64,000 nucleotides of DNA from an uncultured Lachnospiraceae bacterium (GTDB taxonomy: Bacteria > Bacillota > Clostridia > Lachnospirales > Lachnospiraceae): positions 85,544-149,543 of the forward strand of contig CANRNJ010000005.1 of the NCBI GenBank assembly GCA_947631955.1, read 5' to 3'. Of the stretch, positions 2,436 through 47,610 are shown one piece after another (positions within the stretch are counted from its first letter, which is position 1; each line of letters begins with the position of its first letter). The notes under the pieces were generated by a model. It did not search any database. It was not told the origin of the DNA and saw nothing but the letters and a program-made list of their open reading frames with translations. Made by a program: the position numbers and the translations under genes.

Positions 2436-2945
2436 CTACAGCGGTTCCCGGCAGAAATAGCAGCTGTATTTCATCCGCGGCGCCGCCGGGATCAGGTTCT
2501 GCGCGCCGCAGTAGCCGCAGGATACGCACTGTTTATTCGGCGGCACGGGATCGCCGTCCAGAAAACGCTCCGCCGCCGTCAGTCTGCCCTTTTCCGCGTC
2601 GAGCCGCTTCTGCTCCACATATTTTTCTCTGGCATGTTCTTTTTCGTCCGCCGCCGCCTTTTCCATCAGATAGGCCGTGGTGGTATTTCCGTCCTCTTTC
2701 GCCTCCTGTATGGCCGACTGGACCGTCGTCTGGCGCGCTGCCTGCTGTGCGCCATGCCCGGCCATCGGACGCTGTTTCTGCTGCGTGTCCGGCCGTCCTG
2801 TGGGCCATGGACCTGCCTGCTGCGGCATTGAGGCATTGGGCCGCCGCTGATTTTCCATTTCCTCCTGCCTGCGTTTCTGTACTGTTTTATAGATCTTAAC
2901 ACCTATGAAGATGATAATAATCAGTTCAATCATTTTATTCTCCAT
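2436..2945 (-). CDS. Hypothetical protein, N-terminal membrane anchor and C-terminal Cys4 zinc-ribbon-like motif
   Basis: MENKMIELIIIIFIGVKIYK hydrophobic segment; C-terminal CGYCGAQN...CYFCREPL; start trimmed from 3053 (2933 also possible). Confidence 0.7.
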   Translation of the reverse strand: MENKMIELIIIIFIGVKIYKTVQKRRQEEMENQRRPNASMPQQAGPWPTGRPDTQQKQRPMAGHGAQQAARQTTVQSAIQEAKEDGNTTTAYLMEKAAADEKEHAREKYVEQKRLDAEKGRLTAAERFLDGDPVPPNKQCVSCGYCGAQNLIPAAPRMKYSCYFCREPL

Positions 2946-2948
2946 TCT

Positions 2949-3019
2949 GGAGCGTTCTCGCGACGGGGCGGCGCGAATCTCAAATTCGCGTCTGCCATCA
3001 GGGGAATTTGTGACGCTCC
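2949..3019. repeat. Dispersed structured intergenic element, copy 1
   Basis: GGAGCGTTCTCGCGACGG...GCCATCAGGGGAATTTGTGACGCTCC; shares both arms with 47534..47610; terminal GGAGCGT/ACGCTCC inverted repeat. Confidence 0.75.
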
Positions 3020-3139
3020 GGCACAAATTCTCGTGTGAAAAATAAGCTATCAAGCTTATTTTTCAATCTATTCTCCTCCAAAATCATTGTCCGGACATCC
3101 GGCCCCGCGCCGTCCTTCCCACTCTGCCGGGATACGCGC

Positions 3140-4123
3140 CTAAGATGCGGCGCTGTATTTCACGATCAGCAGTTCCACGCTCATCACATCGTCCAGTCTG
3201 CCCGTCTTGACCGCTTCTTCCGTTTCCACACAGTCTGTCAGCGCCCTGCGCAGATCGTCCTCCCGGAAACCGGCCGCCTGCGCCGCGTATTTTCGGACTA
3301 TAAAACCTGCCAGTCCCACCTTTTTTCCGATGTCTTCCACGCCATAGCCTTTGTTCCTGAGTTCCTTGACCTGAAGAAGCATATTGAACTGTCTGGCGAT
3401 CAGAAACAGGATACGCATGGGCGGTTCCCTGAGCGCCAGAAGATCATAGTACAGTTCCATCGCTTTCTTCTGTTTCTTTTCCGCCAGAGCGTTGATCATA
3501 TCAAAGATGCGGCTGCTCATCTGCCTTGTGCACACCGCCTCGATATCCTGCGCCGTGACCACCTCTTTGTCCATGCAGTAACACAGCAGTTTCTCCAGTT
3601 CGCCCCGGATGTTCACCATATCCGGGCCCGTTCTGTCCAGAAAAAAGTTTAAGTCGCTCTCTGTGATCTTTTTATTCTCCTTATTCAGGATGCCGAGTAT
3701 CCAGCGTTTCAGCGTCGTTTCGTCCTGCGCGGCGAACTCGATCGCACGCCCTTTGGCCGTCGCCGCCTTGTAGAGCCTGCTCCGCTTATCCACGGTCTGT
3801 TCCACAAATACAAAGTACGCCGTTTCACACGGGTCCTGCAGATACTCCGCAAGTTCTTCCCCGCCATGGGCAAACAGTCCGCTGTTTTCCAACAGGATCA
3901 CCCTGCGTTCAGCCAGAAAAGGCATGGTCTGCGCAAGGTCGATCAGTTCTCCCACCCGGATGTTTTTCCCCTCAAAATAGTGGAAGTTCATGGCGTCGCC
4001 GCCTGCAAGCAGCGCATCTTTCAGCCGGTTCTTATACTGGTTCCGCAGATACGCTTCTTCGCCGTAGAGGATATAGACCTGTTTCAGTTGACCCGATTTG
4101 ATTTCTTCCAACAGCTTCTTCAT
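3140..4123 (-). CDS. holA: DNA polymerase III delta subunit
   Basis: YILYGEEAYL, AQTMPFLAERRVILLEN, ELEKLLCY, IFDMINAL motifs; downstream of comEC. Confidence 0.95.
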   Translation of the reverse strand: MKKLLEEIKSGQLKQVYILYGEEAYLRNQYKNRLKDALLAGGDAMNFHYFEGKNIRVGELIDLAQTMPFLAERRVILLENSGLFAHGGEELAEYLQDPCETAYFVFVEQTVDKRSRLYKAATAKGRAIEFAAQDETTLKRWILGILNKENKKITESDLNFFLDRTGPDMVNIRGELEKLLCYCMDKEVVTAQDIEAVCTRQMSSRIFDMINALAEKKQKKAMELYYDLLALREPPMRILFLIARQFNMLLQVKELRNKGYGVEDIGKKVGLAGFIVRKYAAQAAGFREDDLRRALTDCVETEEAVKTGRLDDVMSVELLIVKYSAAS

Positions 4124-45679: not shown

Positions 45680-45794
45680 ATAGTGACCCCCTTACCTTGA
45701 CCGCAGCCATTACGGCCGCATTACCTTCATTTTGATCTCCGTTCCGAAAATTTCACAGATCCCTGTGTGAAAAATCAGCGCATCGCGCAGTCTT

Positions 45795-46394
45795 TCACAC
45801 GATCTTCATCGGTATGGTATAGACCACTTCCACCGCTTCGTCAGCCGCCTCTGCAAGTCTTCGGTTAATGGCTCCCAAGTTTTTTATGTAATCTTGCGTT
45901 TCTTTGTCGTAAGTGCACCCGTCCGCAAAGACATCATTTGTGACAACGATAAGATTTTTGGTCTGCCGGACAAGAACGGATATGCCGGACAGGATCTTCT
46001 CCACCACGTCCGCCCCGGTTTTCTCCGGCTGCGTCCCCGCTTCCGATTCCATCGGACACCTATCCGATCCTGCGCAAGACGGCCGGGCGTCCGGCGAAAA
46101 CATCTCGTTGGCGAGCAGATTCGACATACATTCCAGAAGGATCGTTGCCTCCCGGCACTCTTTTGGTCCGATCATTCCCACAAGATCCTCAATGTTCCGA
46201 TAACATTCCAGAGTCCGGAACCCTTTGCCGGACCGCAGCCTGCGGTGCCGCTCTATTCGTGCTTCCGCGTCCCTTCCGTACGGTTCCATGGCCGCCGCAT
46301 AGTACAGCTTTCCGCCCTCGGCCAGCCGGGCCGCCCTGTTCTCAGCATATTCGGATTTCCCGCTCCCGCTCACTCCCACGACAACCGCAAACAT
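45795..46394 (-). CDS. cobU: Adenosylcobinamide kinase/phosphate guanylyltransferase
   Basis: GVSGSGKSEYAE, RIERHR, LECMSNLLANE, VVTND. Confidence 0.9.
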   Translation of the reverse strand: MFAVVVGVSGSGKSEYAENRAARLAEGGKLYYAAAMEPYGRDAEARIERHRRLRSGKGFRTLECYRNIEDLVGMIGPKECREATILLECMSNLLANEMFSPDARPSCAGSDRCPMESEAGTQPEKTGADVVEKILSGISVLVRQTKNLIVVTNDVFADGCTYDKETQDYIKNLGAINRRLAEAADEAVEVVYTIPMKIV

Positions 46395-47496: not shown

Positions 47497-47533
47497 ATTT
47501 CTCTCCGTAATTTTTCACACTAATCCCTATTCC

Positions 47534-47610
47534 GGAGCGTTCTCGCGACGGAGGCCAGAAGTAAATTCCTTCGGAATCAACTTCGCCATCAGAGGGATTT
47601 GTGATGCTCC
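47534..47610. repeat. Dispersed structured intergenic element, copy 2
   Basis: GGAGCGTTCTCGCGACGG...GCCATCAGAGGGATTTGTGATGCTCC; see 2949..3019. Confidence 0.75.

Follow-up and report, generated by a model that had tools for sequence, protein, structure and literature searches.

The DNA analyzed herein is a stretch of 64,000 nt (the window), corresponding to C5:85544-149543 of a 3.11-Mb genome (designated G000; 25 contigs, 49.8% G+C). On its minus strand, a structured repeat was found between holA and a zinc-ribbon gene, and again between a cbiET-cobB-type fusion gene and cobT. A preliminary description had pointed to two look-alike stretches at 2949-3019 and 47534-47610 of the plus strand, and these were located exactly as claimed: the shared arms GGAGCGTTCTCGCGACGG and GCCATCAGRGGRATTTGTGAYGCTCC occur exactly twice each in the window, against 0.07 and 0.00 occurrences expected by chance, and the inner hairpins of the two copies differ as described, each interior folding into a hairpin of its own. 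The proposed extent of ~75 nt, however, covered only the core of a larger conserved unit (2934-3070 in copy 1), and the strand described was the antisense one, the meaningful strand being the minus strand, which is sense for the genes. The features of copy 1 and its surroundings are as follows.

2934-3070, minus strand: copy 1, a complete unit lying between holA and the zinc-ribbon gene; it begins at TAG/H1 and ends with the base preceding the start codon
3069-3076, minus strand: left direct repeat GGAGAATA, the presumed old SD stranded upstream of copy 1; the 8-mer recurs at 2936-2943
3036-3065, minus strand: hairpin H1, with a 13-bp AU-rich stem and the loop UGAU
3002-3032, minus strand: hairpin H2, with the 5' arm at 3022-3032, a 9-nt loop at 3013-3021 and the 3' arm at 3002-3012
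3013-3019, minus strand: 5' strand of helix P1, GGAGCGU (SD mimic), within the H2 loop
2967-2996, minus strand: hairpin H3 of type A, the variable hairpin in pseudoknot loop 3
2949-2955, minus strand: 3' strand of P1, ACGCUCC (anti-SD mimic); the SD of copy 1 follows 5 nt downstream
2940-2943, minus strand: SD of copy 1, GGAG, within the right direct repeat (2936-2943)
2931-2933, minus strand: start codon of the zinc-ribbon gene, downstream of the SD of copy 1

Covariance model R1 gave a score of 111.6 bits over 2937-3034 of copy 1, and alignment of its flanks revealed conservation from TAGATTG through GGAGAATAAA. The sense strand of H1 in this copy contains a promoter-like TTGAAA-16-TATTTT, the H1b variant being a 9-of-12 match to the consensus. 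The 165-aa zinc-ribbon gene starts at the ATG at 2931-2933 according to the gene callers applied to conspecific contigs. The longest ORF for this gene (2436-3053, minus strand; 205 aa) begins at a TTG inside H1 and stays in frame through the whole repeat, and N-termini may be over-extended by naive gene callers wherever ORFs run through the repeat. A ribosome reading through GGAAUGGAGAUUAGUAUGA would terminate at or beside the start codon in two of the three frames and be in frame with the gene in the remaining one. On the plus strand, a terminator-like GC-rich hairpin (GCGCC-N8-GGCGC) followed by TGTATTTCAC is located at 3136-3153, overlapping holA, on the opposite strand, at its 3' end.

The other copies lie within a run of cobalamin-synthesis genes comprising the cbiET/cobB-type fusion, cobT, cobU, and cobS. 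The internal features of copy 2 listed below were assigned by reading the sequence.

47507-47610, minus strand: copy 2, 5'-truncated (H1 and the H2 5' arm absent), between the cbiET-cobB-type fusion gene and cobT
47604-47610 and 47534-47540, minus strand: P1 strands of copy 2
47553-47587, minus strand: H3 of copy 2, type B
47525-47528, minus strand: decayed SD of copy 2, AGGG
47507-47519, minus strand: trailing H1 fragment of copy 2
47501-47506, minus strand: cobT's own SD, presumably used instead of that of copy 2
about 45731-45800, minus strand: degenerate third copy, in the cobU-cobS spacer

Copy 2 was scored by model R1 at 52 bits. The third copy, in which a diverged H1 and an H2 5' arm are followed by CGGAACGGAGAUCAAA-AUG, was matched only weakly (9.2 bits, E=1.9), and its probable identity is based on agreement with the H1 module at 19/20 positions and with the END module at 17/19, as counted by reading. 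The stop codon of cobU is provided by the GUGUGA of this copy, the SD of which leads merely a 6-codon mini-ORF upstream of cobS's own SD. Neither a cobalamin riboswitch nor any other Rfam family was detected at gathering score in positions 1-64000 of the window. The repeat had initially not been assigned to any known family, and this held in the comparison with Rfam 15, whether the 64 kb were scanned at gathering thresholds or the surroundings of each copy at E up to 10, the latter giving only chance-level matches for both copies.

When read along the sense strand of the gene, the full unit spans approximately 140-170 nt (the repeat as a whole, approximately 100-170 nt) and consists of the old SD upstream, the AU-rich hairpin H1, hairpin H2, the variable hairpin H3, and the new SD in this order. 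The series starts with an SD-like G-rich box belonging to the flank. H1, a 13+3-bp AU-rich hairpin with a UGAU-type loop, is opened by (TA)GUGUG or (TA)GAUUG and is followed by GGGAAUUUGUG-CC-GGAGCGU-CACAAAUUCCC, which constitutes H2. Thereafter come CUGAUGGC, the variable H3, and GCC-CCGUCGCG-AAA-ACGCUCC, and the 3' end of the unit reads GGAAUGGAG-AUUA-NN-AUG. The loop GGAGCGU of the 11-bp H2 pairs with ACGCUCC located just 5' of the new SD (helix P1). Because the strands follow one another in the order H2 5' arm, P1 5' strand, H2 3' arm, and P1 3' strand, the two helices constitute an H-type pseudoknot, in which loop 1 is formed by 2 nt (CC), loop 2 is absent, and the long loop 3 houses H3; such an arrangement is sterically ordinary for pseudoknots. 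Across genomes, H3 may be missing altogether or reach about 60 nt, and thus what had been termed an exchangeable inner hairpin is a dispensable insertion in pseudoknot loop 3.

The base pairs were counted in an alignment (A1) of sense strands, comprising 92 distinct copies taken from about 20 congeners as well as G000. Among the 11 pairs of H2, 7 had changed on both sides, with 91.6% of the cells paired; the corresponding values were 4 of 7 pairs and 96.9% for P1, and 11 of 12 pairs and 87.2% for H3, amounting to 22 of the 30 pairs altogether. At one P1 position, for instance, 67 copies carry G-C, 17 carry A-U, and 6 carry G-U. The observed covariation values were reached by none of 500 shuffles, and only 34-48% of the cells were paired in slid controls. 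All three core helices (H2, P1, and H3) therefore passed the covariation check proposed in the preliminary description. The GGAGC/GCTCC terminal stem of that description was likewise borne out as a real, covarying helix, namely P1, but it is not a closing stem: since GGAGCGU lies in the H2 loop, P1 is the second stem of the pseudoknot. As for H1, pairing is retained despite differing outer and inner stems in 64 distinct variant copies, a set that was selected for pairing.

The counts of G-U versus A-C combinations in the 92-copy alignment (23:8 in P1, 46:33 in H2, and 60:60 in H3) mildly favored the sense strand for P1. As this wobble-pair strand bias was weak for H2 and absent for H3, the helices could equally act as single-stranded DNA signals. 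Of the other pairings considered, an alternative helix GAUGG/CCGUC was discarded, as it exhibited no covariation and 76% pairing; anti-SD pairing of the UCC/GGA type (CUCC:GGAG) is compatible with the alignment only and displayed no covariation; and the covariation support for a GCG/CGC mini-hairpin was weak. In folds computed without pseudoknots, the SD was usually engaged in pairing (mean probability of being unpaired, 0.31), since ACGCUCC pairs either with it or with nearby sequence. Judging from this modeling, formation of P1 would take away ACGCUCC as the competitor of the SD. The unpaired CUGAUGGC and CCGUCGC are also deeply conserved, which hints at a binding partner, although the explanation favored below does not need one.

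Copies in G000 were collected by pattern scans and two rounds of nhmmer search (E < 1e-5), resulting in ~48 copies dispersed over 18 contigs in front of housekeeping genes. With respect to the inner hairpin, ~30 belong to type A and ~15 to type B, whereas four are short forms that begin at GATGGC. BLAST searches with the individual modules further uncovered a third type of inner hairpin, as well as deletion derivatives in which H1 is fused to the SD, H1 stands alone, or H1 and the H2 5' arm are fused to ACGCTCC. Head-to-tail tandems of the repeat also occur. Copies are near-identical within one genome (four cores are identical in G000, and at least seven in genome G116), and those from different genomes are separated by compensatory changes. 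The preliminary view of a dispersed structured repeat, in which structure is conserved while sequence diverges, was thus borne out by the 48 copies and their covariation; the genome-wide search for the arms suggested therein took the repeat beyond any chance match between two copies.

The flanking genes in G000 were called with a simple codon-usage gene caller. Approximately 46 of the 48 copies lie in the sense orientation, i.e., the orientation noted earlier is antisense to the flanking genes in ~46/48. Most copies terminate in CGGAAUGGAG, followed by 5-8 nt and then the start codon of an unrelated gene. Conservation extends to CGGAATGGAG-N5-8-ATG, placing a putative RBS inside the repeat and adjoining the ATG, and an ORF of at least 40 aa starting with ATG, GTG, or TTG begins 5-13 nt, mostly 6 nt, after the SD GGAG in 38 of the 48 copies. 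The preliminary description had missed this supply of an SD by a repeat that reaches the start codon. The genes 3' of the copies are presumably gltX, serS, smpB, fmt, folA, coaX, nth, engB, uxaC, cobT, and those for ABC ATPases and membrane proteins, as read from N-terminal sequences. Since ABC ATPases were the sole recurring family among 166 downstream proteins from many genomes, the repeat has no conserved "home" gene, and no "master" gene constantly preceded by it was found among these proteins. With regard to the cis-regulator suggested earlier, a gene-specific regulator is unlikely because the downstream genes are unrelated.

G000 displays a strong GC skew, and 87% of its genes are co-oriented with replication. 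Two full copies in this genome precede lagging-strand genes and are still in the sense orientation, indicating that the orientation follows the gene rather than the replication fork and ruling out replication-strand bias as its source. A coding or leader-peptide role was also rejected, as the copies vary in length by 1-3 nt, the uORFs are consistent neither in frame nor in stop, and in the H1b type the stop falls within the core.

BLAST searches detected the repeat in 18 of 25 sampled genomes of the genus, including G000, with 0 to >20 copies per genome, and gave no match in 16 other families of the order. With covariance model R1, 49 of 300 Lachnospiraceae genera (about one in six) were positive, about 20 of which had at least 13 copies, and zero matches were obtained in about 290 genomes of other Clostridia. 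In addition, one genome per species was scanned with a 20-nt pattern, and 78 of the 80 loci fetched among the matches listed turned out to be full elements; the carriers among these matches included metagenome-assembled genomes labelled Acetatifactor, Eisenbergiella, Kineothrix, and "Roseburia", together with the cultured Parablautia intestinalis D8-82 and Bianquea renquensis NSJ-32. No match was found in the plasmid records searched, and those in phage records were confined to three short unannotated human-faecal "Bacteriophage sp." contigs (MT837007.1, MT838414.1, and MT836788.1; 73-82% identity), which may be bacterial fragments or bear prophage-borne copies.

The junctions of the repeat with its flanks were then compared. 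The left flank nearly always ends in ...GGAG(N2-4)TA or ...AA, depending on the subfamily. When obvious tandems were excluded and permutation was performed within the subfamily, the longest common substring of the left and right SD regions was 4.85, versus 4.25 ± 0.10 in the permuted sets, and none of 1000 permutations reached the observed value. Rare variants match on both sides, such as GGAAAGG (L239), CCAAAATGG (G000 C1:251317), and GGTATGG (GGUAUGG; L097), and copy 1 itself bears GGAGAATA on both sides. Over all copies, these flanking direct repeats of the SD region form a continuous length range of 8-26 nt, the long ones including those of 15 nt in L161 and 26 nt in L156. The ends of the repeat, TAGTGTG... 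and ...GGAGATTA, are not inverted repeats. The MITE proposed in the preliminary description was not supported, as neither terminal inverted repeats nor a fixed-length target duplication could be recognized, and a transposase is expected to give a fixed duplication length. A repeat length rising with the homology between target and element end would fit template switching or gene-conversion-like copying, although local tandem duplication and subsequent deletion could also account for the long, variant-matched repeats.

Filled and empty sites were identified by comparison among species. At the cbiET/cobB-cobT junction of G018, the repeat is absent from a spacer of 44 nt, as read directly in L016, and in G006 and G009 the flank matches of the same cobT junction are only roughly 45-50 nt apart, too close for the repeat. 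Conversely, the sites orthologous to elements of G014, G007, and G017 are empty in G000. As orthologous sites are thus filled in one species and empty in another, the repeat moves. At one of these operon junctions (L003 of G014, compared with G000 C11:56365), the leading TAG of the inserted repeat serves as the stop codon of the upstream gene, and the protein encoded downstream begins four codons further on than its orthologue at the empty site. In conspecific rabbit-gut metagenome contigs, both window copies were fixed and none was polymorphic; a precise empty site in a near-identical strain was not found among them, nor did the predicted empty-site strings match in metagenomes. Two conspecific ENA contigs terminate at the repeat, L044 at 88 nt and L045 at 13 nt upstream of cobT; short-read assemblies are broken by the repeat.

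Candidate mobilizers were assessed with five families (Y1_Tnp, RVT_1, PDDEXK_2, IS110, and TnpB) in 18 high-copy genomes that were mostly >95% complete. RVT_1 was present in 10, PDDEXK_2 in 14, IS110 in 7, and TnpB in 5 of the 18. Y1_Tnp was absent from G116, G060, G254, G294, G182, G205, G246, and G130, and it occurred in 18 of the 49 repeat-positive genera, compared with 170 of 301 (56%) overall; the suggested link to HUH/RAYT (Y1, IS200) transposases was not upheld, since Y1_Tnp does not track the repeat. None of the five families is universal in the high-copy genomes, and a correlation with the repeat was rejected for each. An autonomous partner in G000 was rejected as well, as no repeat found by BLAST of the genome against itself shares the element's ends; these repeats included genes for Rpn/PDDEXK_2 nucleases and others that we take to encode a TnpB-like protein, a serine recombinase, and a Fic-like protein.

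Several of these repeats were inspected individually. A 3-kb repeat of 96% identity (C7:144605-146062 and about 230-3265 of C10) carries a 485-aa TnpB-like (Cas12f1-like_TNB) gene and a 509-aa ORF, and no similarity to the element's ends was seen in it; the PF07282 matches in G000 coincide with these two TnpB-like loci. Four near-identical PD-(D/E)XK "Rpn-type" nuclease/transposase genes (PF12784) are located at C7:51296-52123, C7:71532-72440, C7:75250-76125, and C11:32968-33873. PF12784 has 9 matches genome-wide in G000 and is not universal in the high-copy genomes, and two tandem elements follow one such gene, the first of them about 45 nt beyond its end.

With its copy number, orientation, position, architecture, covariation, presence or absence between species, and flanking SD repeats established, the repeat is probably a mobile, non-coding "portable translation-initiation region" confined to Lachnospiraceae, of which the window would hold two copies and a decayed third. 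In the mechanism that we propose, a target gene acquires the repeat in or beside its SD; this old SD would stay upstream as a direct repeat, and the gene would then be translated from the repeat's own SD. New copies would arise by homology-dependent copying, i.e., template switching or gene-conversion-like repair, using SD-like microhomology at both ends, and this copying would be carried out by host replication or recombination functions instead of a dedicated transposase. That the five candidate families are not universal in the high-copy genomes, together with the variant-matched SD repeats, suggests such homology-driven copying into SD sequences, at least as far as the junctions can be read. 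In the mRNA, the pseudoknot would tie up the anti-SD-like ACGCUCC in a compact 5' structure, keep the new SD open and shielded from upstream sequence, and possibly stabilize the transcript. With the SD open and shielded, insertions before essential genes would be tolerated.

The hairpins might instead be single-stranded DNA signals for an enzyme encoded elsewhere, the repeat being a transposase-mobilized, non-autonomous element (a MITE or an IS200/IS605-type palindrome-associated one), the link of which to start codons would stem from a GGAG..TA-type target and the purging of harmful insertions. Its richness in hairpins, strict orientation, head-to-tail tandems, near-identical copies within a genome, stereotyped left flank by subfamily, and H3 without wobble-pair strand bias are all consistent with this explanation, and G000 has four Y1_Tnp matches and two TnpB genes. 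We nevertheless regard it as unlikely: terminal inverted repeats are absent, the flanking repeats of 8-26 nt scale with target/element-end homology, no longer repeat in G000 has the element's ends, and for each of Y1_Tnp, TnpB, IS110, RVT_1, and PDDEXK_2 there are several nearly complete genomes with at least 13 copies that lack it, some of them (such as G116) holding identical copies. The variable length of the flanking repeats, a 3' end that is always intact, 5' truncations at many positions, and the conserved RNA-type pseudoknot would also be understandable if the repeat were a SINE-like retroposon, the RNA of which is copied by reverse transcription where an SD is nicked, with its SD-like 3' end pairing as the primer; both the variable-length duplications and the frequent 5' truncation would follow from this. 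However, 8 of the 18 high-copy genomes have no reverse transcriptase gene, among them G116, in which identical copies occur; selection for the SD would account just as well for the retained 3' end; and the promoter-like H1 would fall outside the element's own transcript, which leaves this origin extremely improbable.

The pseudoknot and several unpaired residues are conserved, with compensatory changes, in 49 genera; this, along with the three-part layout of SD mimic, anti-SD mimic, and SD beside the start codon, would be expected of a trans-regulated, cis-acting RNA spread by mobility, which binds a protein, small RNA, or small molecule and switches with the CUCC:GGAG anti-SD pairing, so that its carriers constitute one translational regulon like the Neisseria REP2 genes. 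By reading of the copies, triple changes in L006 and L088 preserve P1 and the small GCG/CGC hairpin, and the REP2 genes are indeed co-regulated (PMC3184786). On the other hand, the downstream genes share no functional theme, the anti-SD pairing amounts to 3-4 bp without covariation, the GAUGG/CCGUC alternative is unsupported, no conserved partner gene was found, and many decayed or truncated copies persist before working genes; we therefore consider such regulation quite doubtful. Still more of a long shot is the combination of a transposase-free element homing to SDs by microhomology copying with a pseudoknot acting as a shared translational module, an arrangement that in many gut Lachnospiraceae would have joined dozens of genes, unrelated to one another and partly essential, in one post-transcriptional regulon.

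The portable translation-initiation region favored here was also compared with known systems. REP/BIME, pneumococcal BOX, bcr1 of Bacillus cereus, and Neisseria Correia elements are small, multi-copy, structured intergenic repeats that are co-transcribed with neighboring genes. BOX is modular, resembling the swaps of H1 and H3 in the Lachnospiraceae element; unlike the latter, which does so by position, none of these four is fixed at the start codon or supplies an SD. Correia and RUP elements have inverted terminal repeats and TA duplications, and REPs are mobilized by RAYT, whereas the Lachnospiraceae element is not tracked by Y1 transposases. The preQ1-II, SAM-II/V, and fluoride riboswitches likewise place an H-type pseudoknot directly beside the SD; the present element differs in having no Rfam match, in occurring in tens of near-identical copies before unrelated genes, and in leaving the SD outside the pseudoknot. 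Integron attC sites were dismissed, as no R''/R' core sites (RYYYAAC...GTTRRRY) were recognized on reading the sequence and the copies are dispersed on 18 contigs, and so was the hammerhead ribozyme, as the sequence reads CUGAUGG (position A9 = G), with no GAA after H3 and no Rfam hammerhead match.

The closest known analogue appears to be Neisseria REP2 (Parkhill 2000; Morelle 2003), a repeat of 120-150 bp with about 26 copies, two stem-loops, and no inverted terminal repeats, which carries a promoter, an RBS, and an ATG immediately upstream of genes and the proliferation of which is unexplained (PMC3184786). The Lachnospiraceae element resembles it, by description, in being interspersed in tens of copies before unrelated ORFs, in placing an RBS next to the ATG within the repeat, and in having internal stem-loops without terminal inverted repeats; as homology is not expected across phyla, we regard REP2 as an analogue and not a homologue. 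Besides belonging to another phylum, the Lachnospiraceae element adds a covariation-supported pseudoknot abutting the SD, a modular variable hairpin, SD direct repeats, and a spread over 49 of 300 genera, and in it a possible promoter is limited to a weak match to the consensus in one H1 variant. The IR-A/IR-B repeats of Borrelia plasmids (Dunn 1994) are likewise situated upstream of genes and combine two stem-loops with a promoter, an RBS, and an ATG (PMC3184786). They share with the Lachnospiraceae element the gene-upstream position, the stem-loops, and the RBS/ATG, and differ in being low-copy, plasmid-borne, and about 180 bp long, with no pseudoknot or family-wide spread reported. By analogy, the element would thus act like REP2 while going beyond it in its pseudoknot, in its modular hairpins, in the direct repeats of the SD, and in its family-wide spread, and a family of this kind seems not to have been described so far for Lachnospiraceae.

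For genome annotation, start-codon calls can be misled by long ORFs that run through the repeat, which is also a point at which assemblies break. For expression engineering, the element may offer a natural, context-insulated RBS cassette. It also represents a tractable case, with cultured carriers available, of the question posed since REP2 as to how start-carrying repeats multiply when no transposase is obvious. The butyrate producers that dominate in the gut include Lachnospiraceae, and in about one genus in six of this family, tens of genes appear to be translated from a repeat-borne RBS, among them, judging by sequence, those for an aminoacyl-tRNA synthetase, smpB, folA, and the cobalamin pathway.
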